A stretch of DNA of 44,086 bases from Psammoneis japonica (GCA_008632985.1 QPGO01000230.1:62001-106086); one strand, 5' to 3'; positions 1 through 42,543 are shown, counted from the first letter of the stretch. Notes: generated by a model not told the origin, from the letters alone. Program-made: numbers and translations.

Positions 1-2932
1 TCGTTTTGTGTGGCTCTTTAAAACTCGAACGTCGCGGTTTTGGCACCTCTCTGATTAGATTCGTCACACGTCCTCAGAAACCTACAAAAACTTGTAACTT
101 CTCTTCACAAACAAGTCGAGGGGAGTGCAATTAAGGCAATCGCAGAATGAAGGGGCAAAGGCACGACAATTTGATTTTTCAGGATTTTCGGCAATCGTCC
201 AGCTGTGCAGGCAGCTCTTTACAAACTGTGCAGGAAATGTGCCAGGGTTTGTGCAGAATTTGACGACGACACAATTCCATTTTGACAGCGACAAGTAGAA
301 ACCCACATGGTTTTCCAGCGCAAATTTGACAGTGACGCCACAGACGGAATCACTGTCAATGTGCCAATCACCGCATTGTTGTGGGTTTTCGATCACAGGG
401 AATTCCTCATTTGGCGCTGAATTTCCTAGACAAGGAAATGTGAGAAAATGAGAAAAGGAAAAAACAATTAGTGATTCAATGCGTGGTTGCAACCGTCATG
501 AACCATTCATCTAGAAGTTGATTTGCACAGAGCCTTTGGCTGCCAAAACACCTCTTTTTGTGCAATGCACTCAATGAGTGAGGCAGACACCATTGGGAGG
601 CACTTTCTCAAGGACAAAAAGATGTGCTTCCATGGTCTCTTCAAGTGCAATCTGCTCTGAGCAAGCCCACAAAAGCTCAAATTGGTGTGGCAAATCTGGC
701 GCACATCGTGCAACAAAACAAAAGAGGAAAGCCTCTTTGTTTTCTTCATTTAACAAGCCAATGAGGGGGAAATCAAGATGTGAGCATGAGCGGGGTTTTG
801 GGTCATGGGGGGCTCCTCTCTCAGCAGCCCCCAAATTTCCTCAGATGAAAGGAAAATTTCCTGCACTTGTTTGGTGCCAGTTGTGACCAACACAGTCCTT
901 TCATCTTGCAGCCAATGTTGTGGTCCACTCATCTCTGTTGGATGGCCAGCACAGAGCACAGCTGCTGCAGCACTTCAAGCAGCCCGCCACCATGGAGAGC
1001 TTGGCGGCGGCTGCTTGTCTCTTGTGCCGCAGATGGCTCCTTTCCTTTTGCAATCATTTTTTCATGCAGAGCTGGCAGAAATGCCATTTGACTGCAGTGG
1101 CACAGCTGCATGATGTGGCCCAATGCCAACATCATGAGAGGAGGCCAGCACCCACTGTGCTGGCGGTGGCTGGCTGGCTGGGCTGTGCCTTGCAGCCGGT
1201 CTTGCCAGCACAGCACCACAAACAAGCACATTTCCTTTGACACCAAACCACAGGAAAATGCACTCTTGATTGCTTGTCTCTTGTGTTGCAGCAGGCAGAT
1301 CCTTTCCTTTTGCAACCATTTTTCACAGAGAGCTGGCTGCTGGATTGCCAAACAACCTTGTCGCTGCTGCTCACAGGCACAGTGTGACAGCAGAACCTGA
1401 CACCTGATTGCTGAAAGTCAGCCTTCAATCTGTCAAGTGCAAACTTAAATTGAAGTGCACAAGCTGTGAGAGCTGAGAGCCTGAGTCTTGTGGCAAAACC
1501 TCACAAAGGGCCTTTGCATTTGCCCTTCTTGCTTGGGTTTTTTCCTGCTGTGCCTCTCTTTTTGCTGGCACACTTGCCAAAGAGAAACAGCACAGCATGC
1601 TGATCATCAGCACTTTTGGCAGGAAAGGTTTGGCAGCAAAAACAGAACATTGGTTGTTGCTGTGCAAGTTGTGAAAATGTGCAGTCTGGGCAGCGGGGCA
1701 CAGCTGCAGGAAGGAGCTTTTGTTGCTCATTTTTGGGTTTTCTCTCATGTCTCTTGCAATTGACACACTTGTCACAGCAAAATGTGGATGTCATGCATTG
1801 ACATTTTTGGCAGGAAAAGGTTTGGTGGCAAGATCAAACATCGGTCATTGCCGCATCATGGTTGGTTTGTTTTTGTCGCAGCAGCATGAATGTCGTAAAA
1901 CGTCTGTCCATCGTACGTGCGAGTTGAACGTACGTATGGCGTTTTCTCCTCCCCTCCTCCTTTTCCTCTCTTTTTTTTTCATAAACTCGGAGCTGCCTAC
2001 GTGACCGGACACATGCCGGATTTTCTACTGTGCGAGAAACGCGCAGCGCGCTACGCGCCTCGTCGCCAACAATCGGCGACGTGACGGTGGTGCGTTGTCG
2101 CAACGACAGCGATGACAGCGACGTGTCCCAGAGTCTTTTGTCATTATGGACATTTAGTTTATTATGTTTAAGAGCGCATTCAGTCATGAAAGTCCCCGCG
2201 AGCAACCTCCATTAGAGCGCAAAACGTCACACCAATGAGGAGCTCTGTTTTTCGACCATCGTTTTATGCACTGGATTGTCGAACCATTGTGAGTTCATCC
2301 GGGGGACTTTCTTTACATGTGTGTGTTCTGGACAGTGTAATTGATTAATGCATTGAGTGCCTGTCGCAAAGTCGTCCTCTATCAGCGTCTGAAAATTGTC
2401 ATCGTCATCGTCGGCGTCGACGGCAATTTGTCGTGCAAATCGCAAAAAATGCACGACTGTCGTCTGTCTGACATTGCGCTACTGTGCGCTCGTTGAGCGC
2501 ATGCCTCAAGTAGTTTAAACACTTTGTTGTGTGAAATGTCCAAGTTTCCATCGTCTGGGAGAGGGATCAAGTTGGCGAGCCGACTTTGGCGATTTGTGTA
2601 GAAAACATGCCAAGCTCTACGTGTGTAGAATCTGACCCACTTTTGCACCCGTGCCACCTTGAAAGATTCGCAACACAGTGGATGATTTTCGGCGAAAACA
2701 TTGCCGTTATTTGGATGTCACCTGAACACCGAATCGAAAAATTTGCGACAAAAAATCCGCGTGCGCACGCATTTATTTCTGGTGCACCTGCAACACTGCG
2801 AGCTGATGTGCCGATGTGCCTCACACGTCAATCACGCCCCCGTTGTCTTCCGAGGCAATGCTCACTGCATCATGCCCCATTTGGCATCACGTTCATTGAG
2901 CGAAGCTTCACATGGTGCTTTTGTAATTGGAA

Positions 2933-3782
2933 AATGGGCAGATGTTGCTGTCGTCAAAGTGGTCGACTCTCAAGATTAAAAGGTGTTTCTGTTGCTGATG
3001 ACTTGACAGATGACATGAAAAATGCTGCAGATGCATTGCTTCCAATGCTTGAAATGAGATTGGAATGGCACATTGCCAAGCGGGTGGCAAACAAGAAACA
3101 GAACCATCCGACTCTTGTTTTCACACATGACAACCTTCCTTGCATGTCGGCAGCACTGTCTCTTGTTGGGCATGCCACAGACGATTTGGACTGCATGGAC
3201 GTTGATTCTTGTTTGCTCAAGACACTTGTTGCAGATGTTTTCAAAATGATGACGGCACCCTTGAATGAACTCGAGGGTTGCCACTTGTGCTGTGACAAAA
3301 ACAAAGGTCGGTGGATTCGGAGCGGCAAAGTTTCTGGGAGTGGGGAGCCTTGCTTTAGAACCCGTGGCAAGCAGCATTGGGAGAACTCCAGAAAGATAGA
3401 TCAAATGAGAAACTCAAAGTTCTGTCGTGCGCACCCAAGCAAGAGCACGTCTCAAGCACTCAGTCGGCGCGACGGATGCCATGAAAACCTTCAGATGCAC
3501 TGTGCCTTGGCATTTGACAGGAAAGATGATGCATCAACTTTGTTTGACTGCTTTCATTGGAGTGATGAGACAATGGAATTTCTCCGTGGACGCAAGGGTG
3601 ATGCGCTTGATGACTTGCGGCTCGACATGTTGGCGCATCTTTGGGAGCTGAGCTACGATCTCATGATCGGGCATGACGACAATGTTTCAGAAAGCCCAGG
3701 GTGTGAAGCCTTTGGACTTGGGGACAACCACAGAAAATTAAAGAAGGATTGGCACGACAAGACACAAAAGCACATGGATTGA
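2933..3782 (+). pseudogene. Hypermutated ORF of unknown function, probably a repeat-associated protein family
   Basis: Long open frame within ORF 2586..3782. It reads naturally once C/H are restored to Y: EGCHLCCDKNKGRWIRSGKV, KFCRAHPS, GCHENLQMHCALAFD, LAHLWELSYDLMIG..DNVSESPG. Only one Tyr in 398 aa. Confidence 0.5.
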
Positions 3783-5049
3783 AACAGTGTCTAGCTAGAG
3801 ACTTGCTGCTGATGGAAAGGAACAGTGCAGTCAACACTGTCATTTCTTCTGGCAGTGAGAGCTCAAGCGTGATTTTGTCGTAACAAAATTTGAGCCATTT
3901 TGGCACTTGTTAAATTTGCGACAAAAAGGCTGTCGCAATTTTTGCGCCAAAGAAATGTCAGCATAAATCTGCAGACGTACAATCAGCATTGAGTCTGCTG
4001 AGGAAGTTTGTGATGCATGTCCCATGAGGACTTGAACACCCCTCAAAAAACTGTTTAAATGTTCACACTCTACAAGCCCACAAAAGTCAATCCGTCCAAG
4101 CATTTTGTGTGAAAATGCTGCATGCACTAAAAGACACACAAATTACACTCAAAATCGATTGTCGTTTTGTGCGTCACCTGGGGCTGGAACACGTCACACC
4201 TTGCACACATCTGAGTTCTTTCCACAAAGTTTCAACTTGCCAGTGGCTGGGTTTGGCTCTGCATGCTTGACAGGCCACACACTTTGCTGTTGTTGGTCAC
4301 CATTCTTGGAGTTGTCATGATTCATGATGCTTGCAGTTGTTGCCTGGGACTCCATCAGTTTTCTGAAACAAGAGAAGTCGTTCATGATCTTGCTGCACAA
4401 TGCACTGCCAAGCTTGGCACTGCAATTGGGGTGAGAGGGATCAGTGAATGGGTGCACACCATCAGGGATGATTGACGCCATTTCCTCCAACTTTCCTGCA
4501 TTGTTGGAAGCTTCAATTGTGGCACCAATGAAAACAGGATTGGGCTGATGGTTGCTTGACTTAGACTTGGCCAACCACATGGCTTCATCAGAGATCTGCA
4601 GAAAAGGCCTTGAGTCACAAGTCATCAAACCCCACCATCTCATGGCACGCGCATGCCCGCCTGCATTGGTGGACCCCCCTCCTGATTGAAATCGACACTC
4701 ACTTGTTGGAAAGGCCACATTTTTGTTCATTTTGAATGTGGCGATCAGCACATCTCGCATTTGTTGCCCCAGAACCCATTTTGTTTAGTTCGCATTCATT
4801 GACTTGAATGCCAACATGCCAAGTCACATGGCTGCATCATTCCCTCAACTGAGGATGATTGCATTTTGTTCCAACTGAAAAACATTCATTTTCATGTTGC
4901 ACTTGGCGCTTTCGTTGAAAGTTCTACATTTCTGTCCTCATCATGGATTTCGATCATTCCGCAAAATTTTCCTCCCTTTTCTGCTTCCCCTCCCAAACCC
5001 CCTCCCCGCCGGCAAATCACAATCTTTCATTTGCACCACTCACCGGAGT

Positions 5050-7975
5050 GATTGTGTTTGGGGCATTTGTCCCTTCCACCTGTGATCCACGGATCCAATC
5101 TCCTGTGTTTTTGGCGAATCAGCACAGAACTGCAAAAGCAGCATGACAAGAAGTCCGTGGGTTTCTGCATCCTCTGTTCATGCCACGATCACCCATGGCG
5201 GTTTGCCTCTCCCACCATTGTGATCATGCCCCGGCTCAAAGTCATGCCCGAGCCAAAGCCACGATTCTCTTCTTGCTCTGAATCATTCGGGGACAACACA
5301 GAATGGGAAACTCACCCATCTCACCACTTTGTCACGTCTCCAGACCACAACGGGTTGCTCAATGACATTTTTCACCCTCCAACGTGGTGGCAAGCCTCTC
5401 TGATGATGTCAATCTTAGCTCTGACAACAACTCCAGTGGCAACGACTTGTCTGCTCCATGCAATGATCATGCCAGGTTGCTGTCTGCATCCAGAGACCTT
5501 GACGGACGGTCATGCTGGTGATCTTTCTTTTCCCAGCAAATTCTTTAGACACGGAAGTGATGTTTCTGTTCTTGATGGCCATGCTGGAGTGTGCACAAAT
5601 GGTGTTGACGGTGCCTGCACAACAAAGTCCCAATTTAAAAAATCATTGAGATGCAGCACAGCCATCAGCAGTTCATCAAGACTCACAAATGAGCTCCCTC
5701 CACTGATCTCATCTCCATGATGCCAACAACCCCAAGTTTGAGATTGCTTTCACACCTGAGCACCGACTTGACTCAAAACAACTTCAATGGGCCCTTGTGG
5801 AGCATGACACATTTGACATGCCAGAAGAGGACAAGGAACATGTCCCTGAGCTTGCTTTGGCTGATGTGTGATCAATTGCTGTGTTGCGGTTTCCCGACAT
5901 TGATTTCTTGGCTGTTGATGACATGGATGCTCCACTTGCACCGTCAATTGACCATGATGCAGGCATTTTCAATCTTTTTGCTGTTTCTTCTCATGCTGTC
6001 ACCCCCAAAGAACAGGCTTTAGATGGGTGCACTTGTCGTCATCTTCAAAAGCTCCCACTTGGCCCCTTTGGCGCAAAGGCGAATTCAAACAGCTTGATCA
6101 TTTCAATGCACTCAGCATGTTTGACACACAGATGTCTCACCCCAAGGATGCCATTTTGTCCTTTGCCCCCATTGGCAACACAACATCAAGATGGATGGCC
6201 CGCACCAGTCTTGTCACTGCTGTGATGGATCTCCTCAAGCAGCTCCTGCATTGCACTGTTTGCAGTCCACTCATTCATCTTGTGTGGAGCAACCCATTCA
6301 ATGCCTTTTTTTGCTCTGTCAGCTGCCATGGATTGTTGGGCATGTTCTGGTGATGCTCAGGATGCACGAGCTCACTCCGCACCTCCATCTGCACTGGCAT
6401 TTGTTCAGATTGATGACGCACGTGCTGAGTGGCACTTGGACCAGTTTGGCATTGACTTGGATCACTCCATGGTCTTGCCCATCTTACATGCCTTGCAGGG
6501 GCATCCTAAATCCAGCATTTTCTGGGAGAATCACATCAGTTCCATCTTGATGAGTCCCAAGCTGCTGTTTTGGAACACCGCTCATGACAAGTGCATTTGC
6601 TCTGGGACATGTGATGGTGAACAGATCCTTCGTTTGCGCCAAGTTGATGATTTTGCATTGCATGCCCTGTGGAATCCCATGCTGTCAAGACTTTCAATGC
6701 TGCTGGTGAATTGCTGCAACCACCCAGTGAGGGTTTGGTCCCCTTCAAGTGTTTGGGTCTTTGTGCAGAATTCAATGGTGTGGACACACATCAATGCAAT
6801 GATTCAGTCTTGACCGCTTGCCATGCTGCAAATGAATCTGAGTCAGATTTTGTGGTTGCTCCTGCTCCTGTTGACTCCACTTCCCAATTGCATTTGGAAA
6901 CCGGTCCTGAGGAAGGTGCACCTGAGTGTCACAAATTGGTGGAAGCTCAGGGTTTTGGACACCAAAACCTCCTTGGGGAACTGTTGCACAATTGTGTCAT
7001 TTGTCATCTTGACATTGGCCATGCTGTCACCACCCTTTCCAAGTTTGCATCACACTCAGCACCTGTTCACTGCCAAGCATTGAAAGGTGTTGCCAAGCAT
7101 CTCTGTTGCGCATGAAGTGTTGAGATGTCAACTGTTGCAAGCCATCCAGAGTTGACACCTCACTGCCACACCCTTTTGAATGACTTGTCTCTGATGCTTC
7201 ATTGCCCCCTTTTCTGACTCTGGATTCTCTGCCACAATTGCAGCTTCTTTGGATGCAGCTGATGGGAATGACCTTTGCAACTGCCGGCTGACTGCTGGGT
7301 GTGCTTGTGTGTTGGTTGGTGCTGCCACTGTGCATCAATGCAAGACACAGACAGTGACTGCCACCAGCTCAACAGAGGGGGGATTCTGTGCTGCCGGCAC
7401 CACTGCAAAGTTGGTTCTGTGTCTCTGTTTGGTTCTTCAACATGGCTTGGGTTCTCTCAAGACTTGCCAACCTCATTGCATGTTGACAATGAATCAACCA
7501 TCAAGATCATCAGCAATCTCATCCCGACCAAGCGCTCTTGCCACATTGACACCCAGTGGTTTGCTCTCCAGGACTGGAAGGAGGCTGGTCACATTGTCAC
7601 ACAACACATCCCTGGCATTGTCAACCCCAGCAATGACCTCACCAAGGCTCACGGGTCAACACTCCATGCCCACCATGCCCGTTGGATGATGGGACACTTC
7701 CGCCAATTTGTTGTTGCTGGCATCTGTTGAATTGCCCGATGTCGTTTTGTGATGTCTGACTCCTTTCCAGAGTCATCTGGTTTCTTCTGCACTTTTTGTG
7801 CATGAGACTGTCTTCCCTTTCTTTGTGTTGTGATCTGCATTGTCCAGTTTCTTGACATGTTGGATCAGGGGAGGGTGTCAGCCCACTCTGTGCAGGACAC
7901 ATGGCCAGACTGTGTGTGGATGACAGTCAGACTCTTTTGAGACAGATGAGATGATCTCTCTGAGATCTTCTCTCA
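5050..7975 (+). mobile_element. Decayed Ty1/Copia LTR retrotransposon (RT, RNase H, polypurine tract, start of 3' LTR)
   Basis: RT motifs SCVEQPIQ, DAQDARAHS, LHALQGHPKS and LRQVDDFAL (about 6270-6660). RNase H C-terminus DNESTIKII..TKRSCHIDTQWFALQDW..HIPGIVNPSNDLTK (7480-7700). Many frameshifts. Outer boundaries approximate. Confidence 0.9.
7867..7880 (+). other. Polypurine tract followed by the TG start of the 3' LTR
   Basis: AGGGGAGGG (7867-7875) is immediately followed by TGTCA, about 150 bp after the RNase H end, which is the usual Copia arrangement. Confidence 0.65.
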
Positions 7976-9235
7976 CTCTTTCTTGCTGGTGCACATGTCA
8001 TCCACTGTCGCCATTTTGCAGGGAGCTCCTTGGCTTGTTGCTCTTGCCCCCCAGCACTCTGACAGTTTTTGTCTTTTGCCAAAGCACCAGCTCCTTGGCC
8101 GTTGTTGTCAATCACTGTTGTGTTGTTGCAATGGACAAACATCTTGGGATCACACAAACAAAAGGCAGGAGCCACACCCAGATCTTCACAAATCTGTTTT
8201 AACTTGCTCATCAAAAAACCAATCAGACACTGGCCATGGCCACACTTGCTCTTGTGCAACAAATGAGCTTGTCACTTTGCCTGTGGCCAATGGCAAATCT
8301 TGGAGACATGCTTGAGGATGTGGTCGATGCCGAGTTTGCCAGGGTTGACTGAGTTTGCCATGGTCAATCAAAGCAGATTTCTCTCTTCTTTGGCAAGTTC
8401 AAGCCATTTTTTGTTGAGCTTCTCAACAAAAAAAAAACATGGTTGAAAACGGACTTTTCTCACATTTGGAAGCAGGCAAGGAATGGCACAAGCATGTGAA
8501 ATCTTCTTTGGTGCAAATGGGAGAGGGAAGATGGCTGGACAGATTTGGCAAAATCACCTGATTTTGGCAAATTGAGAATCCCAGCATCTGGGTTGCTTTG
8601 GGCAGGTTGAACAGCCACAGCCTCCTGGTCACTTGAGGTTCGTGCATCATTGCCACATGTTGCACGTGCAAAGCTGCACATTGTCAGGGTGCATGATGTG
8701 GCATTTGAAGTTGAATCCCACACAACACTCAGAACAACAAAGAACACCACAACTTTCACCATGGGACTTGATTGTTTGTAGATTGATGGCCACAATGCCA
8801 ACCAAGATGAGAGTTTTGTTGTTTGTTTCAATCACTGTTGAATGTCATGCCATGCTTGGACATGCCAACAAGCAGCGTGTTTGCTGACTTCTGCGTGAGG
8901 GCTCTCACAATCACTGTGCAAACAAGTCTGCAATCACTGTGTTTGTTTCTGCTGCAGATGCAGTCATTGGCATCTGAGAAACACATGCATGTGAACAGCA
9001 TCAGATGATGCAGAAAATTGCACCTTGATTTCCAAGGTCAACAGTGCACCATGCATGACACAGCAAGGAGCAGTGGAGTGCACTCTTTTTTCCAAAAAGC
9101 AAAGATGAGCTAATTTGTGTGGCAAGTGCAGTTTTTTGCCTGCGACTCTCCCATTTGGGTCTTTGCAGTTTTCTCCACAGATGGTGCCATGCATCCATCT
9201 CTTCTTGTTTGGAATGTTTTTTGCTTCCTCATGCT

Positions 9236-11433
9236 GGGAGTTGCATGAAATGTCGAAATTTTCGTTTTTCCCTGTTTTTCGTGGTTTTTCGTGTTTTTTC
9301 GTGACGATAATTCATTTTACACATCCCCTAAAACGTTGCATTTTGGGCTATGCGAACACCAGACACCAGATAGAAGATGGGGTCGAACGGCGAACGCGGC
9401 GATGGTTCGTTGATGCGAAGCGAAAGTCAGTGCCGTCCACCGTCACCGTGCATGCCATTGTCATCCATAAACCTGTGTTGCCAGTCAATCTAAGATGATA
9501 AGATGGTGAAGCTAATGCCAGTACGTTGATTTTCAAAAAGAGATTGGAATGATGGTACGCAACAAGTCCAGATTTACAATTAACTCTATTCCGACACAAA
9601 ACCATTTTCTTATCGTGTCTTCGTGTGCTCCACCACAGATTCCCGGCAAAATGGTTTCAGAACAATGCAGATTCAGAAAACAAGGGCACACAACAAGTGA
9701 GTGGGCAGGAACCCATGAGAAAGGTTGCCTTCATCTTGAAGAAGGCCCCACAACTCGCACACTACTGTATGTCCTGCAAAGTGCTCAAGTGTGACGCGAA
9801 CCCATTGGTTCCAAATCCATTCCGATCTTGTCTGCCTCTGAATGACTGTCCTTGCAAGACAATCTACTGTGGCTCTGGGCAGGCGCATTTGTATGGTGAG
9901 TAGTACAGTCGTGTGTTGCGCATTTGATATTTTACACTATGCTAAAATGATTGATACCGCGCTATTGCCATACAGCAGTGTTTTTGTTGCCGTAGGTGGA
10001 TTGATGGTTCCATGTATTATCGGGCAGGGTTCTCATTCGTTTCCAACGTCTAAAAACAATGTTTTGATGTTAGGCCTTTTAGAGAGATTCCCTTCGGGAA
10101 CGCTTTTGGTGCGGTTTCGGAACGCTTTTGGTACGGTCCCGGAACGGTGGAAACACGGGAATGACGAAATGCCTATTTCGTCGAATGGTATTTCCGTGTT
10201 GGAGCTATTGGCGGTTGTTATAGATATGGTTTATTGTCAAACAATGCTAGTAGTTACAACACACCCTTATAGTTCAACTTATAGCCACTGTAACTCAAAA
10301 TTATTGAGACTTCTACCAGCCGTTCTTTTTCTTAGAGAAAATAGAAACCTGTTTTGACGGGTGTACCTTTTTGCAATAAATCCATATAATCTGTTAAACT
10401 TTTACACTATTGTGCCATACTCAAATAGTTCTAACAATAGTGCACTAATTACAATGCATCATATGTCTCATTGGCGAATTGACCGGCTCCAAAGTTTGAT
10501 TTCCGCGCGAATTAGTGCATATGAGAACGTTCTCGGAACGCTTTTGGAACGCTTTTGGAACGGTATGCAAGGGAATCTTGAACGACAATAATCCAAAATA
10601 GTCTCTAGCCCCAGTCCCCCCCAAGAGGCCTTTTTTGGTTTTGGCGGTTGGAGCTATTTGGCGGGTTTGAATTTGAAATTGTACTATCGCACGAAGCGAT
10701 GAGGTTGAGACAGTCGTGACTGGTTCAAATCGGAGTTCGGGATCGAGAAGGGAACTCAACGGCGTCTCTTGCAGTCGTACGGTGCCATGCGTATCATCAT
10801 GCGTGCAGAAACGCCGTGACCGACAACGTGATGTGCTCATGGCAACTACTTATGATGTATATGTGGATATACAAATTTGGATACAGTAGAAAATGAGCGC
10901 ACAGGCAGGCACCGATAGAAGGTGTCGTCATCATCGATCATCGCACCGTTTTGTCGTTCATTTCAGTGCTTGATGTCACCATGCCAACCCAATTGAGTGA
11001 GTGCAGGTTGTCATTTTTCACGCACTGTGCAACATCATTTAAACATTCTCATTCCATCCAGTGGGTTGTCTTCTCAACGAGAAATTTTGGCGGGGTCTGG
11101 TGAAGACACAACCACCTGCATTTCTGGGGGCATTTTGTCTCAGCACTGGTTGGGAAAAAAGGCAATTGTTGAGAAACCTTCCATGGAATTTCGACATTTT
11201 GTCAAATCAAACAGAGCCCCAAAAACACAGGATTTGTCCTGCAGCCAAATGCAACATTGTGTGTCTGTGGCATGTCCCCTGGCAAAAAGTGCGAGCAGCG
11301 TTTTGGTGGCAAGTGCACAAACTTTCGCAGCATCGTGCAGACTGTGGCGGCACTCACGTGCAGGCAGGTCTCTCTGACATTCTGTGCATTTTTGCAGGGA
11401 AAAACGAAAATTTTGACATTTCATGCAACTCCC
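9236..11433. mobile_element. Segment bounded by a 39-bp inverted repeat; candidate non-autonomous TIR DNA transposon
   Basis: 9236-9274 (GGGAGTTGCATGAAATGTCGAAATTTTCGTTTTTCCCTG) and 11395-11433 are reverse complements at 38/39; the mismatch is CpG vs TpG. No target-site duplication or transposase recognised. Confidence 0.5.
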
Positions 11434-27118: not shown

Positions 27119-27169
27119 TCTTTGTTGAATTGCAAGACGGGTGCCTGTGCGCTCTGTTGTCGAACATCA

Positions 27170-29384: not shown

Positions 29385-29399
29385 GGTTCCATCAGGAAA

Positions 29400-30331: not shown

Positions 30332-30337
30332 CGTGAA

Positions 30338-31794: not shown

Positions 31795-32661
31795 ATGGCA
31801 TGCAAAAGAAACACAACGACCTCCCCGGCTGCGAAAGTTGCCGAAACCAAACAGAAGAAGGCAAAGACGAAGTTTTCTGATGCTCTGTTGAAGAAACTAA
31901 GTCTGCCCCGCAAGACCAACGGCTTGACCAACGACGACCTTAAACCGGAAGACTGCCTTGCCAAGCACGGGTTCAAGCTTTCCAAATCCGCCGGTTCTGA
32001 CGATGGCAGCCATTCTGATGAGGACGCCCTCCTGCGCTGCGCCACCGTCACCGTCTGCCGCAAGAAAGGTGTCGTTTTTCGTCTCCAAGCCAAGAATCCC
32101 CTTTTGGCCAATGTTTGGTTGGAGAAGGTTCTGTTTGACAACCTTCGCAGCAGGACTCCGTGGGCGGTTCAAGTCGGATTCCACCCTTGCGCTGGCAGGT
32201 GGGTTCACGAAGGCGAGTTGCAGATGAACGCCAAGAACTGCGCCGTGCGTCTCTTCTTCATCTTCCTCGAAGAAGTCCCAACCGATGCCAAAGTGCACGG
32301 CCTCAGGAAGTGCATTGCAAAGCAGCTCAACGATGACCCTGAGAACAACACCGAGGTCTTTGTTGAAGACAACTTCTTCTGGATGAAGGATGCTGTTTGG
32401 TCCGAAATGATCGGCAACGAGGCGGCGCTTGCCAAGCTTCAGAAGGAAGGTGGTCAGTTTCACATCGGTTGGTGCGCCCAAAACAAGAACTTGCTTCACA
32501 GTTGCTTCTACAAGAGGTCGTTGCCTGTGGAACTCTGTTGTCTCATTAGAGCTCCGGCAGAAGAAGCTGGAGAAGAGGCCGACGATGATGTCGAGCTCAA
32601 CTGCGAAGTTGACCTGAACGTCGATGACGACTTGGTGCTTCATGACAGTGACGAAGACTGA
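31795..32661 (+). CDS. Hypothetical protein of about 288 aa with a basic N-terminus and acidic tail; hypermutated
   Basis: Uninterrupted frame with strong third-position C/G bias, a K-rich N-terminus (KQKKAKTK) and a D/E tail. No domain recognised. Confidence 0.7.
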   Translation: MACKRNTTTSPAAKVAETKQKKAKTKFSDALLKKLSLPRKTNGLTNDDLKPEDCLAKHGFKLSKSAGSDDGSHSDEDALLRCATVTVCRKKGVVFRLQAKNPLLANVWLEKVLFDNLRSRTPWAVQVGFHPCAGRWVHEGELQMNAKNCAVRLFFIFLEEVPTDAKVHGLRKCIAKQLNDDPENNTEVFVEDNFFWMKDAVWSEMIGNEAALAKLQKEGGQFHIGWCAQNKNLLHSCFYKRSLPVELCCLIRAPAEEAGEEADDDVELNCEVDLNVDDDLVLHDSDED

Positions 32662-32933
32662 GTTGTTTTTTTTTTGCCGGTGCAGTGCAAATTTGCAAAT
32701 GTTCAGCAAACCAAGTGTCGATTGCAACTCAGCTTTCCTCTGTCTCTTCAAGCATGTGCCATCTCCGACAACAACTTGTCGTCACCGCGAAGCAATGGCG
32801 AATTGAGCAGAGCAACTAGCGTGTGACGTCCAGTGCAGTGACAGCAAAAAAACAGTTCAGTTGAGTTCTCAAGCAAAATTGGCTGTTTTGCGATGGGCAA
32901 ATGCTTCCGTTCCAAGTGTGTCGGAGTGGGACG

Positions 32934-33800
32934 TCACATGTGCTGGCTGGTTGACTGAGAAGTCTCCTCTTTCTTGGTGTGCTTGTGGAAGACGAGATGT
33001 TTCACATCTCCGCTGTGCCACAAAAAGTCGCCATCATGGTGATCCACCGTGAAGGACTTGCACATCCACTCTCCCACGCACGACGCGAACAGCAGATCTA
33101 GCGCCACCACCACAGTCCCATCACAACACAACTTTGAAAGCATCGCCTCTGCCTTCTGCTGTGTGTTCTTGTCGTCGACCATGCGGGAGTTGCAGTTGTT
33201 GAAGAACACCTTGAGTCCTTTCTTTTTCCACAAAGGAGCCAGGCTCTCGTCCAAAAATGACTTGTTGATCAACTCTGACCCACCGTTTGAGCGAAGGCCA
33301 GCATGATGAGCCCAACGCACAGCCTCTTGGTGACAATCGTGGTTGGCCTTGATGCTCACCACGGTGCAACGGCGACGAAGTAACTTGAGCCCGATGCTGG
33401 GTCCGGCAACTCCCCTGCCCATGTCGACAGATGTGTCGCAGGTGTGATTCACGCCAAGAAGGCGTTCGTTCAAAAACACTTCACTGCTCAAAACGAAGCC
33501 AACTTCGCCGCCGTGTGAAGATCTGCTTCCGTCTCCGGAGACATGCCTGCTCTGGAACGTGGAGTCCGGAGCCGTTTGAAGATGAAACTCCCTGACACTT
33601 CTGTGACGATGGTTCATCGCACCCAACTTTGCAGCAACATCAACCTTGCTTGCAGCGGGTTCGACCAGATGTCGCGTTTCCAAACCAAACTGTGGCATGT
33701 GCAGAATGCGTAAATTTGCCGTCGCGCCCTCTGTGCACGCGAAATTTTCAAACGCGGCGTGCTGCCTCCACCTGCGCATGGAGCGATGTGTGAAGTCATT
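32934..33800 (-). pseudogene. DOT1-like class I SAM-dependent methyltransferase (putative histone H3K79 family)
   Basis: Motifs in DOT1 order: SSHGGEV (YGE), DTSVDMGRGVAG (DxGxG), VVSIKAN, INKSFLD, KVFFNNCN (vFvNN), LSKL..GTVVVAL, FLW..VFHKHTK. Lies within ORF 32934..34304; true start uncertain. Confidence 0.6.
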
Positions 33801-34620
33801 CAAACAGATGTGCAGATGCATTGATTTAATGAGACGCCTCCAGGCGATAAAATTTGTTTTGAATCTCGGCCTGCTTCTCATCGTTGCCGTGCTTGTACAT
33901 CTGTGTGATTCGAACGCACGAGCTGGCACGACACGTGACGCACTTCTGCACGAGAACTCGTGCTGAGATTGCCGTGGGATGATCCTCCCTCCGCGGACAC
34001 AAAAACAACGCGACAACACTTCCGTCATCATTTTGAAACACATTTCAAATTGAGACACACCATGTCGCAACTGCCTCGTGCCTCGCTGCGTCATCCTGCC
34101 AACCACAAGCACTTGTCGCGATTGAGTTACAATCGGTCTCGACAGTGTGGGGGTTTGGGACGTGCAGCTCGCAGCCCGACAACAAGCAAACACTTCTCGC
34201 GATTGGGTTTCAACCCCACTCCCGATGCGTTCCAGACACAGGTGGGAATCCGTGTGACATTGGGCCCCGTAGACTTCCACGTGCGAGCTCCGCAGTAAAA
34301 TCACACGGCAATTAAAATGTCAATGATCGCCAACAGAAAATGAGGCAATTTTGCGAACGCACAAACTCGCACATGATTGAAGCACATCATTTTTTACTCA
34401 GCCAGTTACATTCTTCAGACATTGAAGAATGTAACTGGTGCATTGTTGTTTCTGTGAATTTGTCACACAAAACGTCTGGGGGCTTCGCAAAACAGCGAGT
34501 CTGGACAATTTTTTTTAAATGTCACATGTAGAAATCTACGTGCGAAACATGTGACGGATGACAAAAATTGTTGTTGTCACACGCCAGCACTGTGAGCTCC
34601 CACCCAGGGCTGGAATGCGT

Positions 34621-34780
34621 CTCCCCTGGAGTCCACCGGTCCCTGTCAACAGAGTTTTGCTTTGGGTGCTGTTGAGGCAATGGAAAGCAGACACATCTCT
34701 TGATTGGGTTTTGACCCCACTCCCCTGGAGTCCGCCGGTCCCTGTCGACAGAGTTCTGCTTTGGGCACTGTTGAGACAAC
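34621..34780. repeat. Two copies of a roughly 60-bp direct repeat, period 99 bp
   Basis: ctcccctggagtcc.ccggtccctgtc.acagagtt.tgctttggg..ctgttgag occurs at 34621 and 34720. Confidence 0.85.
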
Positions 34781-35840
34781 AGCGACAGTGTCGAGTGGTG
34801 GAACATTTGCCGGCAAGTTCGCACACACGTTCTCTGTGAACACCGCATCGTCCATGCACACCAGGACACACGAGAACGTGTTGAGGGCTCATCCGCCATC
34901 CAAGATTGCTCGCCTCGTTCCACTCGCGCCGTGCGCCACCAATAGTCTCTCCACACACCACGTAGCCAACCGCACTCTAGCTCATGACGGCGACTACACT
35001 CAGCCTGCACCACCTTGTCTTGCTGACATTGACTTTGCCGAATTGGCTCCTCTGGTTGTCTGTGACCCTGTGCTCGATCTGAAGCCTTTCTTTGGCTTGG
35101 ACGGTTGCCGCTGTGACAACACCTGCACCCTGCTGCCGCGTTCTGCTGTGGTGTTCAGCTCCCCCAACCCAGCAGAACTAGTTGCTCAGTGCCGGGCACT
35201 TGAAGCACTGGAAGGCTGCACTGCCCAGTCCACCGTGCACGGCAAACAACGCGTTACCTTCATGGAGACGAACAGGAGCAAGCATTCCACGATTGGCCTG
35301 GCTGCCACGAGAGATGCTCAAATTTCTTGCAAGCAGCCTGGCATGGCCGACCAACACACTCACCACCTCACCAGACTTCTTTCACGCATGGAGCACCTTG
35401 TCAACGAGCACGTGGACTGTGCCATCCTCAAGGGCATCTCTCGTGTCAAAAAGTTTCACAACTGGAAATCCCTGGCACAGTCAGATGGCATTTTCTCCTC
35501 TCTGGCGGCTGGGCACAATGTCTTCCTCAACGCCCATCGGGACCAGGACTTCTTCCTGTCAGTGGTCACCGTGGTGGGAGTCCCTCTGTCCGGCAGCCAC
35601 ACCATGAATGACGGGATTGTGGTGCACTTCTGCTTCCCTGCCGAAGGCATCTCCATTGCACTCCGGCTTGGTGATGTCATAATTTTTAACCCCACCAAGC
35701 ACCACTGCATCTCCAGCAGGACAAACTCAAACGACGAGTTCTTCTGCGTGTCTCTCCACCTGAAGAGTGCTGCAGCAGGCAAGAATGACAATTCAATCCC
35801 CCTTTCTCTAGAGGAAGAGACCATTCTCAGGCGACTGTGA
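34704..35840 (+). pseudogene. 2-oxoglutarate/Fe(II) dioxygenase, TET/JBP-like
   Basis: NVFLNAHRDQDF (HxD), FCFPAEGISIALRLGDVIIFNPTKHHCISSR (distal His), VSLHLKS. The frame is open but has 1 Tyr in 378 aa. Confidence 0.65.
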
Positions 35841-36128
35841 CAGCACAAAATAATTTGCTAAATTTGCGTAAATTTGCTGACTTTCTGTGCTCAGGCAACC
35901 ATGCTGGTGCCAACTGGTTCACTGGATTTGCGCAAATTTGCCGACTTTCTGTTCTTCCTCGTTCCCATTTTTTGAACGACAACTGGGGCTACGCCTTTCC
36001 AACTGATGCTGCAGTTTCGCTGAAAAACACCAACACACTGTGCTGCTAATTTACAGAGCACACTGCACGGCAAATGTTTTGCCAGACGCAGAGCTTCTCT
36101 CCCCCGACTTGGGGAGTAGACGCGATTT

Positions 36129-37484
36129 CTAATTCCGATTCATGGCTCCCAACGTTGCCTTCCTCTTCTTCTTCTTCTTCTCCGATTCATCCAAGTTGCA
36201 TCTGGAGAGAAATTCCTCCCCGGGCATGATTCGCTTCGTGACTGCCAAGCACCCGTTGTTGTAGAACTCGCAGTTGTTGTCTGCCTGTTGGCTTGCCTTG
36301 ATCTTCTTCTTGTCCTTGAACGACTCGGTGGCATCATTCACGCAGTGCATTCCGAGGCAGAGTGGATGGGAATTCTTGTTCCCTGGACCGCTAAAATCAA
36401 GCGGTTTTGGCTCCACTGTGACGCAGTGGCCCTCGCTGTCATGGATGGTGGAGCAGCACACGCTGTGGTCTTCTCCAAACTTGCTGTCGTGGTTGCACCA
36501 CAAGTGGCTCCTCGTTGCACCGGGCACCCTGGGGCCCACATGGATTCCAACCGCACTGCCTTTCTGGAACTGGCGCAAAGCAAAAAAACCAATGCCTGCG
36601 CCCCTCCGTTCCTCCTTGGGGCCTGCGGAGCGAGCGGACTTTTCGAGGCAAAACAACGCAGGTTGAAGTGGCGCGGCGCCTCATCCAAATGTGCACACTT
36701 CTGCACTTGCTCTCTTCACGAGGTGGACCAGTGCGAGCGACCACCCCGCTTTGAAAGCCTCGACGGCGGTCTTGAACACTTTGTTGCTCTTCGGCGTCGA
36801 GTCTGGGATGCCCCTCTCGCCGACTTCCGTGTGGCACCTCCACACCCACTTGCAGTGTTCGCCGTGAGCATTCGCGACGGCTTCAGGGTCGCTCCTGATG
36901 CACCCCAGTTCTCCCAGCGCGGGGAACCAGAGGTCGGGATCATTCGGCACATCCTTCATCAGGCACATGGACTCCTGGAAATTGTCGGATTTTTCGTGCC
37001 GCCACACCCAGTCCCACAAGTCGAATGACGGCTCGTTGGGGTCCGGAAATTGCTTTCCTTCTTCTTCCTCTTCCGCCGTTGCTTTTGCAACCACTTTGGC
37101 CGTGGGCTTGGCTGCCTCCTCGCTTTTGCCACTGCAAAAAGGTGGGACCTCCGGTTTCACAAAGGTGGCCTGATCACCCACCAACTCGATCTTGCAACCA
37201 GCCTTGAGGAGCTGCTCGGCGGTGTGACCCAGCTGCTGTGCTTCTTTCCAACCACAAATTTGAAAGGTTGGCTCCGGCGGCACGGCTTTCTCCCCATTTT
37301 CAGTTTGGGACTGCGCCGGCTTCTCCGACATCCTTGCGCATTCGGACTTGACGGACACACCCTCGGCGCCAAGTGCAGTCATGGCAGCTGCCGCCGCGCC
37401 TTCAGCGCCCGTGAGTTCTGCCATGACTTCCAGAGCTGCTGCATCCTCTGCTTTGCCAGACACAACGATGTTGTCCTCTGCCAT
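36129..37484 (-). pseudogene. SET-domain lysine methyltransferase with a long N-terminal extension and one in-frame stop
   Basis: GAGIGFFALRQFQKGSAVGIHVG, LGMHCVND, NNCEF..AVTKRIMPGEEFLSRCN. ORFs 36681..37733 and 36129..36656 are in the same frame, separated by TGA at 36681-36683. Poly-Lys C-terminus. Confidence 0.75.
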
Positions 37485-38775
37485 TCTGGCGCCATGATGA
37501 CAGAGCTGCACTGACTGCTGTGTGGTGTGCTGCTTTGTTCCAGCCATTGGCGATCCACATCCTTCTGCGCACGTAAATGTGCAACACTTCGCACCAAATT
37601 CCACGTGCCCTGACACACCCTGCAATGCCTGCCGCGTGCTTCCAAGTTCCTCAACGCACCGCCTCCAGACGTGGCGCGTCTGCACCTGTCTACATCCGTC
37701 TTCACTGCTGTGCGCACTGCGGTGATGCAGCACACCCCATCAAAGCTTCATTGATGTTTGTTTTTTCCTTCCTTTTCCTTTTCTCTTCTTCTTCCATCTG
37801 GCTGGGAGGAACTGCTGGATAGCCTGGGCATGAGATCTTTCATGTCCATGCACAAAAAGTTGCACTGCATGTGCACGGGGAAATTTCAATGGCTGAGGAT
37901 CTCAGGTGGGTCTCAATGTGTGACAGACTCTGCCAGCAGCTTCTAGAAAGGGTGGGGAATGCAAGTCGAACGTCAAAATCAAACAGGATGCGAAGGTGAA
38001 CATCAACCATCATCGCCATTTGACATCAGCGTGTGGAATTGGGGAGGCCTCATAACTGCATCAACTGCTGCACAGTGCAAAAATCTGTTGTTTTGCAGTG
38101 GAGCTCTCTGCGGAGCTCTCCATGAAAAGTGACGAAAACAGAAACGACGGCATCAAAGCATGCAACAACATCACAAGCGCTGCGACCGCCATCGTAGTCC
38201 AGTGACATGCACATGGAACAAGTGACATGCCAACAAAGATTGCTGTCTTGTGCTTTAAGTCTTTCTGCATCTGTTGGAAAAGTTTCAAAGAGTGTTTCAA
38301 AATTTGAAACGCGCCAACATCAAAAGTTGACAGAAATTGGTCGCGTGGGACAACATTGCCTCCAGAGAGCCATCAAAAGATGGCGCTCAAGCTTTTTCCC
38401 ATTTTCAGGATAGATCGCCATCCCAAAAAAAAGAAAAAGGGGGGACGCACTGCGGAGACAGCAAGAAAACTTGCGAGTCAACCGCGTTCTAAATCAACAC
38501 TCCCTGCAAGTGAAGACTTGCCGCATCATGTCAATGACATGACAGAACCCCAAACCTGTGTTCTGTCAATGGCATGATCTGCTTGGCGAGCTTTTGCTGC
38601 TTCACAGATGAACGCTGCTGTCTGTTTCAACAGCCGTGACCTGACGGGTCAAGCAAACAGGCAACTTCCTGCGCTCAAAGACACTGGAGTGACGTGGACT
38701 CAAGGCTGGAGAGACGCACTCGATTTGCCCCAACCTCCGGACTCAACTGGCAACACCTGCGCCGCCGATTGAGAA

Positions 38776-39067
38776 AACACGCCATCAAGCAAAATGATTT
38801 GTGGAGTTCCAAACAAGAGCGAGCAATCTATTCCAGAAGAAGGGCAAGCCATCCTCGGCGATCGCGGCATCAGTTGCTTGGCAAACAACAAACACATCGT
38901 GCGAGACGACGAGTTTTAAAAGAGAGACAACACGCCATCAAGCAAAACGAGTTGTGGAACACCAAACAAGAGAAGGCAATTAGAGCCAGAGGATGGGCGA
39001 GCCATCCTTGGGTGTTGCCGCATTCCGGCTTGGCAAACAACAAACACATCGTGCAAGATGACGAGTT
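38776..39067. repeat. Two-copy diverged tandem repeat, period about 153 bp
   Basis: aacacgccatcaagcaaaa ... gcttggcaaacaacaaacacatcgtgc ... gacgagtt begins at 38776 and again at 38929. Confidence 0.85.
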
Positions 39068-39271
39068 GTGAGCGAAAGAAGAGTGCGAAACCAAGAGATT
39101 TTGTTTGTGTCGTGACCGTTGCCAAATTTCTCAAGCACTGTCAATTTTGCGCAAACGTGTAGAATGAATGCCATGATTTTGCATGTGGGACACACGCCAG
39201 GACTTGGCACTTTCAAAATTGTCACCAATTCCTTCGCACACTTCACGGCAACCGTCCAAACGCAAAAAAAC

Positions 39272-39750
39272 TGCTGACTCCATGACGTCTTCGTTGTCGA
39301 GGTCCAAGCTCCTGCTCCATTCATTTGCCTCACAGGTCTCTGCAGAGCAACACTTGACGCTGACTTGAGCCCCACACAGCACACTCTCAACTCCTTGTTT
39401 GTCATGGCTTTCAAGTTGACAGTGGATGGGTCCTGCCGTTGCTGTCCATGTGCTCTTCCAAGCAGCAGCAGCATCAAGTTGTTTGTGGTTTCAAGAAAAT
39501 GGTGGATCCAAAACATGTTGTCCCCCTGGAAAAGCCCTGCGTGTGCTTTGATCCCGAATTTCTCCCGGATTCCACTGCAGACGCCTTTCACGAGGATCTT
39601 CTCAACAACGTGAAGTGGGAAAAGACAGCCAAAATCAATCGATGGGTCAGTCTTCATCACACAAAGGATTTGGAAGATTGTCAGCACCGCGATGCACCAG
39701 GAGCTGCCCATGTCGGATTCAACTCCACCATTGAGAGCATTCAAAAAAGG
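39272..39750 (+). pseudogene. Truncated 5' fragment of an AlkB-family (ALKBH2/3-like) dioxygenase gene
   Basis: VCFDPEFLPDSTADAFHEDLLNNVKWEKTAKINRWVSLH..CQHRDAPG resembles the AlkB N-terminal part after restoring Tyr. It ends before any HxD motif. Confidence 0.55.
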
Positions 39751-42543
39751 TGGCCTGGGGCTGCAACAGCACAACATGGTTGTGCTGGTGTGGGCAACTG
39801 CTCATTGGAAAAAAGGAGCATTGGCAGGTGACAGTGCAGCTGCATTGCCCCCCACCATGTGATGGGGGCTGTGCTGCTCTGGCTCTCTCTGCAGGCACAT
39901 GTCCAGCGTCACAGCCATGCTCCTGACCCAGTTGACCTCTTGCTTGACCAGCTCCCTGTCCATGACCACCTGCATGACCAACTGCACAATCTCTTCTGAC
40001 CTCCTCCTGCAAGTTTCAACCATGACAAAAACAATGCAACAGCAGCAAAGGTTGATGTTCTTGTTGTGCATTTGTGTGGATCAGCTGCTGCAGCATCCTG
40101 CAGACAGCCCCACAAACAAACAAGCTGCACAGACCAGCACAAGTGTGTGAAATGTTCTTTCTCAACAAGAGCCAACTAAGATCATCAAAACTGAGACATC
40201 TTTTTTTTTTCAAAAACAGATGTGATGCATCTGGTTGAAACAATGCCGGGCATCCAGCTGTTCAACAAATGAGAGTTGCAAACAAAACACATCGCCAAAG
40301 AAGACCAACAAAGTGGGTCATTTGAGTTGATTCAAATGGTTGCAAACTTTGAAAAGAGTGTGATGAAAAAAGTTGAAAAAAGAACAACCACTTGCAAAAA
40401 TGGCACAGGCAACAATCACCACACCAACTGGCTCAACTTCATGAAAAAAAAACACATCACCAACACACAAAACAACACAAAAAGGCAGGATGCACCCAAA
40501 TGCACCCAAACAATGACCACATTGCAGGGAGGCTCCAACATTGCAGGGAGGCTCCAACAGAGTCCAGGGCTCTGCATGTGCCAACACACAAAAGCTGTGG
40601 GAAATGCAAGAGGTCAGAAGTGAGACACAGGAGCAGGCAGCTTGCAGCAAACAATGAACTGATGCTTTTGCTGTGTTTTCATTTCTTGAAAACTTGGACA
40701 AGTTGAAAAAATGGCCAAAGACAAGAAACAAAGTGCTGCAACATTGTGCACAGGTGAGTGGAACAAACACCAGCAGCATGGCATTCACACTTGCCAAACA
40801 AAACATGCCAAACTAACAACTTTTCTGCACTGCACTCTTCCAGGGATTGCTGTTGTAGCTCACAGTGAAAAGCTGTTGCAGCATCTGACTCTCTTTGAAA
40901 CCTGAAATGTTGGAGCACAATGCAAAGCCAGTGCAGCCAGGAACACTGTGATGCAAGACAGGCTGCAAAAGAGACAGTGGGGTGGCTGTTGGGTTGAAGC
41001 AAGAACAGAGAGAGAGATCAATCAAGAGATGGAGAACAAGGCAACAGAGTGATGGCATGTGGATCAAGAGCATGCACCCAATGTGTCAAACCTTGCCAGG
41101 GCAGAAAGCAAACATTGTTGCAAACCAAAGCTGCAAGGTGCATGTGCCATCTGACAAACAAACAAATTGAACTGTTGGCATGCTCCAGTGCCAACAACAA
41201 ACAACAGCAATTGGTGGTGAGATCAACTTGGGCATGTGCACACAGAAATGAACCATGTTTTGTCCATTGTTGTTTCCCAGTTTTTCCAAACATGTGCAAA
41301 AATCATTTTGTCAAGAGCCCATGCAATGCAAGACCAATTTTCCTCAAGTCTGGTTTCCTGCTTTGCTGGTTTGGTCAGCTGCAAAAAGCCACTTCTCATC
41401 AAGCAAACTTCAAGAGAGCAGTTGCTGCCTTTTTCCAGACATTGCCAACCTTTTGTCGTTTCTTGCACCACACCCACACCAGAATCTTTGGCAAGTTCTC
41501 TCTGGCCAGCAGTTTTTGCACAACATGTGCTGTCTGTTTTCTGTTCTTTCATGCAGGGTGCTTTGCCATTGCACTTGGCCTGCACACAGGGGATGTGGAA
41601 ATTCCTCTTCTCAAGAAGCGAAGCTCACATTTTTGTGCAGTTCTTGGGTGCTTCAGCAGCAGACCATGGCTGCCTCCAGCACTTTTGTGAAATGGGAAAT
41701 TTGCCCCTTGTGGGTTGCATGCATGGACCAAAGCAAGGACAAAAGCCAAGTGTGTTGGTTTGTCTCAAGCAATTCATGATCTGCCATCTCTCCCCACCAT
41801 GTGAGATCTTGGGAGGAAATTGACATGCGTGTCCTCTTCATGTGGCCCCTGTGAGTGCACTCCAAGGATTTCCTGCATGTGGGTGAAGCAAGCAAGTGGT
41901 GCTGAAGTTTGTGATTTCTTGTCTTGTGTGAGCAATTCCATGTCATGGTGCTGATTGATTGGCCCACCAACATGCAAGAGGTGAGACTTCCCTTGCTAAA
42001 ACCACCACTCCACATGGCACAGCCACCACTTTCAGATGAAGCTCCAAATTTTGCAGGGTGCAAAGGAAAAAATGGTCAAGGAGTCTTGTATGCATGATTG
42101 CATGATTGATTGCAAGCCAGGGTGTTCAAATTGCAACAGAACATGCAAAGGTGATGATGCCAAGCTTCATGGGTGTTGTGCCCTGTCTTGGTTGGTTAAA
42201 CCATTCAATGGACATTGCTGCTCCTCTTCCTGTCCAGCAATGCCATGTGTGGATGTGAAAATGATGTGGACAAACTCGAATGACAACAACTAAAACGACA
42301 GCAAAAGACAGACTCACATGCACTGAGAAAAGAAGTGGTCCTGTCCCCCCAGGATCGACCATTCTCACTCGCGCGATTATTTACCAGCGTCTTGAGAGTG
42401 TCTCATGTCTCCCCCGCTTTGTGTACTGTCAGCTTTCTAGAGAGTGGTCTTTGTCCAAACAAAGAGAAATGCAAACGCGAGCAATTCATACGCTGGCTAA
42501 ACTTAGGAATGAATTCTTCCGCCTCAAATGACAGGCGAGGCTC

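Follow-up and report, generated by a model that had tools for sequence, protein, structure and literature searches.

Near-complete loss of TpA from mobile and pseudogenised DNA of the diatom Psammoneis japonica: a probable in-place hypermutation of TpA to TpG or CpA

A 44,086-bp stretch of the genome of the diatom Psammoneis japonica (GCA_008632985.1 QPGO01000230.1:62001-106086; GC ∼48%), called the window here, carries a Helitron transposon, retroelement remnants, a copy from a leucine-rich-repeat (LRR) gene family and a host gene, and ∼38 kb of it is strongly depleted in the dinucleotide TpA. Dinucleotide counts were compared with the expectation from base composition over the whole window, in 1-kb bins and in a 250-bp profile, and are given as observed/expected ratios (O/E). 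Two types of affected DNA are distinguished in the 250-bp profile. Class A (500-1750, 4250-9250, 11000-21000 and 39750-42250) has lost both TpA and CpG, whereas class B (21000-39750) has lost TpA (O/E 0.05-0.26) and kept CpG at O/E 0.5-0.98. The features of the window are as follows.

500-1750: class A DNA, with 0-1 TA and 1-5 CG per 250 bp against 51-62 TG+CA
4250-9235: class A DNA (TpA O/E 0.00-0.10) with a copia-type reverse-transcriptase (RT) remnant at 6226-6810, plus strand
9236-11433: element of 2.2 kb with 40-nt terminal inverted repeats (TIR element), at high summed word depth in sequencing reads
11041-21000: class A DNA by its TA counts, holding the RT-like, ankyrin and tandem-duplication parts listed next
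15157-16005, minus strand: RT-like frame, within class A
16032-16677: tandem duplication, 2 x 322 bp, copies 98% alike and both TA-free
17712-18233, minus strand: ankyrin remnant (Pfam match, E 5e-9)
21600-23154, plus strand: hypermutated copy from an LRR gene family, class B (LRR_1/LRR_4 matches, piece at ∼21.8-23.2 kb)
24518-27166, minus strand: PIF1-type helicase frame of the Helitron, open and hypermutated (PF05970, E 4e-14)
27170-28843, minus strand: Rep (HUH nuclease) region of the Helitron, 42% identical to protein P0084 over 527 aa
29694-30257, minus strand: DUF6570 N-terminal piece of the Helitron (weak match)
30258-39750: class B DNA with long open frames (TpA O/E 0.05-0.24, CpG O/E 0.5-0.98)
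39750-42250: class A DNA, with 0-2 TA and 0-1 CG per 250 bp
42544-43566, minus strand: host gene for a THUMP-domain tRNA guanine methyltransferase (Trm11-like), unaffected (PF01170, E 9e-27)

The Helitron has the architecture of the Rep/Hel type, with an HUH Rep and a PIF1-type helicase; a further match to PF14214 is weak. At E ≤ 1e-3 the copia-type frame (6226-6810) matches 542 relatives, with 56% identity to the best, and all three of its conserved Tyr columns have been lost, now reading Arg, His and Cys. The Trm11-like gene is a full open frame with 13 Tyr in 340 aa, and its best named relatives are from diatoms (Nitzschia, a Bacillariaceae metagenome-assembled genome and Amphora; 57-66% identical), with a best unnamed match of 81%. 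Pfam was run on 15 frames first and then on 150 of the 192 open frames of at least 90 aa, where ankyrin, LRR and Helitron pieces only were found. PHROGs gave no match on eight long frames. Dispersed copies within the window were found neither by ordinary self-BLAST nor by self-BLAST of a purine/pyrimidine-collapsed sequence (noise floor ∼62 bits, from shuffled sequence), which returned nothing beyond short tandem arrays and the 40-nt inverted repeat.

Across the whole window there are 403 TA dinucleotides where ∼2,869 would be expected (O/E 0.14), while CpG stands at O/E 0.54 and TG and CA at 1.62-1.64. The affected DNA combines TpA O/E of 0.00-0.26 with TG/CA O/E of 1.3-2.0, and in the 1-kb bins of 5001-9000, 11001-21000 and 39001-42000 TpA falls to 0.00-0.07. 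A preliminary description of this DNA had reported no TA between 11042 and 12979, and counting confirms it: the longest distance from one TA to the next runs from 11040 to 12980, a gap of 1,940 bp (11041-12979 being TA-free). The chance of such a run is ∼5e-40, assuming a normal TpA O/E of 0.7. Within class A, CpG O/E is 0.04-0.26 in 1-kb bins and TG and CA together make up ∼24% of all dinucleotides, as expected if TA and CG had both been converted. Normal composition is confined in the 250-bp profile to islands at ∼1750-3000, 9250-11040 and from 42250 onward; TpA O/E reaches 0.75 in the bin 10001-11000 and 0.62 in the last bin. The two products are balanced, with 4,529 TG and 4,436 CA in the window and only local imbalances between them.

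Two well-known processes also leave marks in dinucleotide counts. Fungal repeat-induced point mutation (RIP) and a RIP-like process of basidiomycetes at TCG, as described in PMC3318451, resemble the present case in that dense, context-specific transitions disable mobile DNA in place and dinucleotide indices reveal them. RIP, however, changes C to T at CpA (or TCG), which raises TpA and AT and creates stop codons, whereas the change here is A to G at TpA; RIP is also tied to duplication and to a sexual stage. Its signature of C:G to T:A change at CpA, rising TpA and falling GC is absent, since TpA is removed, TG and CA are raised and GC lies between 0.44 and 0.56 in the bins. Deamination of 5-methylcytosine at CpG likewise feeds TpG and CpA and explains the missing CpG of class A, the only part of the window with this decay signature, but it cannot remove TpA. 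In 31001-34000, TpA O/E is 0.05-0.11 while CpG O/E is 0.84-0.98. CpG decay is a second process, separable from the loss of TpA; one mechanism shared by both losses was considered, and is ruled out by this same stretch. The preliminary description had placed the pattern opposite to RIP and apart from 5-methylcytosine decay, and on both counts it was right; TpA is removed also where CpG is intact.

The direction of the change can be read from conserved protein columns. The helicase frame was aligned with 19 homologues (29-44% identical), giving 294 conserved columns. Its Tyr content is 0.2%, compared with 3.1% in the homologues (range 2.4-4.2%); the scarcity of Tyr noticed earlier is thus borne out, with 2 Tyr in the 882 aa of the helicase frame and 11 in the 313 aa of the host frame. 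Eleven columns are conserved as Tyr in the homologues, and of these two are kept, seven read Cys and two read His. Columns of control residues are largely intact (Phe 20/22, Gly 23/26, Trp 6/6, His 5/5). Ile has become Met, Thr or Val, and Val has become Ala, as expected for ATA, T-AT (across a codon boundary) and GTA codons that lose TpA. Altogether 84 of the 294 columns have changed: 26 can be explained by one step from TpA to TpG or CpA and 4 by one CpG step, with 11 other transitions, 20 transversions and 23 that need several steps. The five peptides that had been offered as examples of such changes were located at 24752-24778, 24827-24853, 21694-21723, 15493-15522 and 36534-36548.

The Rep region has been affected in the same way. 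Where P0084 has the catalytic motif CQYQFKYGTK the window reads AQHTIECILK, with both catalytic Tyr lost, and among 16 Tyr of P0084 that align with the window Rep one is still Tyr, four are His and three are Cys. Because its catalytic Tyr pair reads His and Cys, the window Helitron is, as far as its sequence tells, a dead member of its family and would be enzymatically inactive despite its open frames. The change is restricted to TpA, is polarised towards TpG and CpA, and uses both strands about equally. That polarity had been proposed in the preliminary description, and it is shown by the Tyr to Cys or His, Ile to Met, Thr or Val and Val to Ala replacements, together with TA at the corresponding places of other copies (see below).

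Loss of TpA also depends on the flanking bases. Counted per kb with strands collapsed, ATA/TAT falls from 21.3 in normal DNA to 1.0 in class B and 0.1 in class A, and GTA/TAC from 19.2 to 3.9 and 0.5. The corresponding values are 15.7, 5.4 and 1.4 for CTA/TAG, and 16.5, 6.7 and 2.8 for TTA/TAA. Unaffected Helitron loci of similar GC have trinucleotide baselines like those of the window's normal DNA. In class B, TTAA and CTAG are hardly reduced and ATAT, ATAC and GTAC are nearly gone. R-T-A-Y sites are lost first, and Y-T-A-R sites (TTAA/CTAG) last. Among 43 events inferred in the window and in an environmental Helitron described below (L002), C or T follows the mutated A in 35. Votes on strand are 27 to 6 for a 3′-pyrimidine rule (p = 3e-4), a count biased by sites that cross codons; in the subset of Tyr codons, where both outcomes are visible, they are 11 to 2. 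Counts of product trinucleotides were tried as a test of the flanks and set aside, as they are confounded by composition.

By the genetic code, TAA can become only TGA or CAA, and TAG only TGG or CAG, so a change from TpA to TpG or CpA never makes a new stop codon. Dead edited genes therefore keep long open frames while their catalytic Tyr are destroyed. This bears on the idea that TpA is avoided by selection in living elements, through avoidance of stop codons, RNases or restriction. The long open frames (882 and 557 aa in the window, and 1,882 aa in L002) could be taken as a sign of such selection, but they are expected anyway, and it is conserved and catalytic Tyr that have been replaced, with non-coding and unrelated DNA depleted alike. 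We regard selection as exceedingly improbable.

The same signature is found in Helitrons from other sources. Scanning metagenome contigs with a profile of the helicase alignment yielded 51 loci with TpA O/E of 0.03-0.94, of which one lies below 0.3. This locus, L002 (contig Ga0210318_1000018, 818-6463), has TpA O/E 0.03 and CpG O/E 0.29, with 10 TA in 6.5 kb. A single frame uninterrupted by stops spans the full-length Helitron, and its 1,882 aa include only 2 Tyr beside 83 Cys and 71 His. None of its 13 conserved Tyr columns is kept (seven Cys, four His, two Phe), whereas Arg (22/22), Pro (13/13) and Gly (26/27) columns are. As a young copy with changes at TpA and almost nowhere else, L002 is the best sign of hypermutation as opposed to slow decay. 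Another example is P0260, a 2,012-aa protein from an ENA metagenome assembly, which has 0.8% Tyr compared with 2.0-4.3% in the rest of 51 database Helitron proteins. Tyr survives in 7 of its 43 conserved Tyr columns, 20 having become His and 11 Cys, and two controls keep 37/44 and 39/43. P0260 is a partly edited Helitron that was called as a protein, and shows that gene callers accept dead frames. No close relative of the window Helitron was found in the metagenome contigs, and no unmutated relative of L002 more than 57% identical among the 51 loci, the best in the protein collection being 53%. A separate Helitron locus, L001 (contig Ga0075467_10006850), has TpA O/E 0.37, with ATA the most reduced (9.6 per kb, compared with 20-26 in unaffected loci), and may be a partly edited copy.

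Contigs of sequencing runs X1-X3 were compared with 9001-29000 of the window. X1, found in a search of sequencing runs, holds 91% of the sampled words of 9001-19000, and its unique contigs (562-2,584 nt, word depth 31-39) show no difference from the window over 11600-15962, 16648-19540 and 20820-21381; accurate reads thus support the TA-free letters. Differences between the window and X1 or X2 contigs number 363, and the 341 from X1 consist of 273 transitions and 68 transversions. Sorting by context covers the 40 places listed. At eight of these the other copy has TA, and at 11 CG, opposite TG or CA in the window. Six places form three double differences, TG in one copy standing against CA in the other, which imply independent hits on opposite strands in different copies. 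Reverse cases are few (two with TA in the window and TG in the other copy, one with CG and TG), and 12 places show other kinds of difference. Among the eight is 21719, where related LRR contigs have TAC (Tyr) and the window TGC (Cys); at further sites, too, TG or CA of the window corresponds to TA or CG in these contigs. The two 322-bp copies at 16032-16677 are both TA-free, so this duplication came after editing.

Run X2, whose kind was guessed as DNA, covers only 9.5-10.2 kb and the LRR relatives, and none of class A or the Helitron. Its contigs skip 80-123 bp within 9762-9975 and 22095-22219, and one skip (9894-9975) has GT..AG ends; the skips and the restricted cover would fit a transcript library. 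No RNA run holding words of 9001-19000 was found among the runs searched.

The depletion ends beside the host gene. Its boundary lies at ∼42250, ∼300 bp beyond the stop codon of the Trm11-like gene, and past it there are 7-8 TA and 11-16 CG per 250 bp. On its other side the depleted zone crosses unrelated elements unbroken, non-coding DNA included. Mobile and pseudogenised DNA has been hit and the host gene spared, which bears out the contrast between repeats and the host frame drawn in the preliminary description. Within the zone, the TIR element stands out. Its inverted repeats (9236-9275 and 11394-11433) agree at 40/40 positions in purine/pyrimidine code and at 39/40 letters, the sole mismatch being CG against CA. 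TpA and CpG are normal from 9250 to ∼11040 (∼1.8 kb), and the last ∼400 bp, from 11041, are TA-free. The element has no recognisable protein domain. One X1 contig carries 18 other letters between 9228 and 11447 in place of the element, and resembles an empty or alternative site.

A process with this signature has recently been described in the chlorarachniophyte Bigelowiella natans (Mettrop et al., bioRxiv 10.64898/2026.01.13.699255). In mutation-accumulation lines, according to this preprint, the mutation rate of two integrated viral regions exceeds that of the remaining genome ∼1000-fold. It reports that 20 of 20 de novo mutations in a virophage region and 210 of 211 in a nucleocytoplasmic large DNA virus (NCLDV) region were A to G or T to C, the GC-biased ones all at TpA, that events were limited to some lines, and that the main target was single-copy. 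The genome is reported to hold 124 clusters poor in TpA and rich in CpA and TpG, with TpA-poor genes enriched for DDE and RT domains, and an ADAT2 homologue is proposed as the enzyme. The preliminary description had stated that no system of this kind was known; the preprint reports exactly hypermutation of TpA to TpG or CpA, in integrated viral DNA. Of that first interpretation, then, polarised hypermutation of mobile DNA stands, while ‘undescribed’ and, as set out below, ‘repeat-targeted’ do not.

Both cases share A to G or T to C transitions at TpA, foreign or mobile DNA affected beside normal host DNA, and depletion of TpA with gain of CpA and TpG. They differ in the host and in the targets, which are viral inserts in B. 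natans and a Helitron, retroelement remnants and an LRR gene copy in the diatom. They also differ in degree, as the reported Rho of the NCLDV region is 0.45 whereas the diatom DNA is near saturation (O/E 0.00-0.07), and in the kind of record, de novo events there and a long-term sequence trace here. The main text of the preprint deals with neither CpG, Helitrons, flanking context nor diatoms. New here are the occurrence in another major lineage, transposon and gene-family targets, near-saturation, the hierarchy of flanks and the consequence that no stops arise. Beyond the preprint, no TpA-directed hypermutation was found reported in diatoms or in transposons of any organism, in a literature search with most subscription journals outside its scope.

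We consider it likely that silenced mobile and pseudogene DNA in the window has undergone hypermutation of TpA to TpG or CpA in place and at the level of DNA, by a process of the same kind as in B. natans. Such a process would act on either strand, changing A:T to G:C at TpA at a rate far above that of all other changes, until almost no TpA is left. The mutation might arise when a TadA/ADAT2-like polynucleotide deaminase converts adenine to hypoxanthine in DNA that is transiently single-stranded, and targeting would follow a silenced chromatin state as opposed to copy number. Error-prone synthesis like that of Pol eta, suggested earlier as an alternative source, finds no support, as the transitions are only at TpA and on both strands.

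Several observations weigh against in-place hypermutation by such an enzyme, and they are brought together in this and the following three paragraphs. X1 may be the assembly's own sample, so that its agreement excludes careless assembly and is not independent proof; in the matter of read support, the letters agree, but possibly within one sample. An artefact of sequencing or assembly, such as a modified base at TpA being called as G, would benefit from this circumstance, and systematic base-calling errors linked to methylation do occur on some platforms. The X1 contigs of up to 2,584 nt at word depth ∼35 are nevertheless letter-identical to the window. A base misread on both strands would give only two strand-coherent versions, all TG or all CA, but the inferred TpA-derived sites along the helicase alternate between the two, L002 and P0260 come from other data sets, and the de novo events in B. 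natans are real. An artefact is therefore very unlikely.

A second point is the evidence for related copies. Summed X1 depth is 1,270-2,960 over 9001-11668 and 2,400-5,000 over 23008-29000 (the Helitron), against ∼35 for unique contigs, although a summed word depth is not a copy number. The high values suggest many related copies of both intervals. High-depth contigs share TG at 26074-5 and 27536-7, where the window has CA, and 792 of 2,711 contigs are at least 99% alike to the window. High depth together with shared TG implies that many copies carry TpA-poor words in common, and part of the TpA loss may predate the last amplification of the Helitron instead of following insertion. In its strong form, this would mean that TpA was mostly lost before arrival, whether in a master element, at a previous locus or in a previous host, and that the window simply holds amplified families that were already TpA-poor and is not itself a site of editing. 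The summed depth over the Helitron, 70-140 times the unique level, suits this explanation as far as such a sum can be read. A master with both catalytic Tyr replaced, however, could not transpose itself, and the three TG/CA double differences need independent events in each copy. In the LRR copy, TA of related contigs reads TG or CA at the eight listed places, and the depleted zone runs unbroken over unrelated elements and ends near the host gene. We judge loss mostly before arrival to be unlikely, though it merits serious attention.

The trigger is a further difficulty. Duplication might be suspected, as the Helitron and the LRR copy are at high summed depth, yet the TIR element is largely spared. 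Copy number alone is not the trigger, because this high-depth element keeps normal TpA over 1.8 kb. The preliminary description had called the process repeat-targeted, which is not established, both for this reason and because most of class A is not shown to be repeated. Either editing was over when the TIR element arrived, or a chromatin or silencing state is what triggers it. In P0260, moreover, His replacements of Tyr outnumber Cys, the reverse of the window and L002 and unlike the votes for a 3′-pyrimidine; a pure 3′-pyrimidine rule does not predict this excess.

Other points concern the enzyme. Deaminases of the ADAT2/TadA type can deaminate A, and also C, in single-stranded or hairpin DNA, and U stands 5′ of the A in their natural substrate, which resembles the present change. 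The contexts reported in Escherichia coli for amphioxus BjADAT2, the one ADAT2 known to have been tried on DNA, were however GAA, preferred for adenine, and TCG, and not TA (PMC10354150). No candidate enzyme was seen within the window, and the sequence by itself cannot tell whether A or T would be the attacked base. Assignment to a TadA/ADAT2-like deaminase is consequently tentative, and we would not call it probable. An invariant T before the A would parallel U33-A34 in the anticodon loop of tRNA, and adenine base editors are further TadA-type deaminases that act on DNA.

The ambiguity of the attacked base leaves room for the same signature and targeting with other chemistry. Thymine in R-T-A might be oxidised by a TET/JBP-type enzyme to 5-hydroxymethyluracil and then be mis-repaired or mis-paired, giving T to C, or adenine at TpA might be N6-methylated in silent chromatin and decay to hypoxanthine, much as 5-methylcytosine decays to T at CpG; A to G on one strand is T to C on the other, and either target base fits. 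In dinoflagellates 5-hydroxymethyluracil occurs preferentially at TpA. The joint loss of CpG and TpA in class A would be in keeping with two methylation-driven decays acting in the same chromatin state, but the losses are uncoupled at 31-34 kb, where TpA is gone with CpG intact. In L002 none of the 13 Tyr columns has survived beside all 22 Arg columns, and the rate that this implies speaks for an active process and not for slow decay. Such chemistry seems to us rather improbable.

Deaminases that hypermutate retroelements and viruses are also known in animals, from the APOBEC/AID and ADAR families, but APOBEC changes C to T and ADAR acts on double-stranded RNA, whereas here a DNA transposon has been edited at TpA on both strands. 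An ADAR-like A-to-I editing of transposon double-stranded RNA, fixed through reverse transcription, might be considered in view of the retroelement remnants in class A and of the preference of ADARs for a 5′ U noted in the discussion of the B. natans preprint. The best-documented targets in the window are nevertheless a DNA transposon and an LRR gene copy, the strands are hit about equally (as the TG and CA counts above indicate), and contiguous unrelated DNA is covered. ADARs are, in addition, a metazoan family. There is very little to recommend this route.

Until the 2026 preprint on one chlorarachniophyte, a process that removes TpA was unknown; the diatom and two environmental Helitrons suggest a wider spread. 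It is conceivable, though we would put it at somewhat less than an even chance, that TpA-directed editing is a conserved defence of marine protists of the stramenopile, alveolate and rhizarian (SAR) group, in which a dedicated deaminase reads silenced chromatin, erases R-T-A-Y and kills transposons and viruses through the loss of Tyr and other codons with TA, without making stops. If so, Tyr-free open frames like those of L002 and P0260 should be common in ocean metagenomes and mislead gene callers, as the long open frames of edited dead genes are called as proteins by annotation pipelines. A comparative handle on the enzyme is given by genes that are shared by hosts with the signature and absent from diatoms that do not bear it, and any candidate enzyme would have to show the R-T-A-Y preference as its fingerprint. 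These findings are also relevant to models of mutation rate and base composition in phytoplankton genomes, and diatoms are hosts in which the process is genetically tractable.

Some further features of the window may be described. The frames at 30-39.7 kb (273-461 aa) have no Pfam or PHROG match; within this part, 31000-38000 has a GC content of 52-56% and overlapping open frames of 300-461 aa on both strands, also with no match in either collection. The normal island at 1750-3000 is rich in CpG, with up to 26 CG per 250 bp (O/E 1.24) and intermediate TpA. It is followed by a 415-aa open frame at 2535-3779 with no family match, and the island and frame together could be a promoter and its gene, or a younger insertion. 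On the 5′ side of the Helitron, 30345-30998 is a tandem array of ∼124-bp units, which differ from one another by, among others, a CA versus TG alternative (TGCAAT and TGTGAT).

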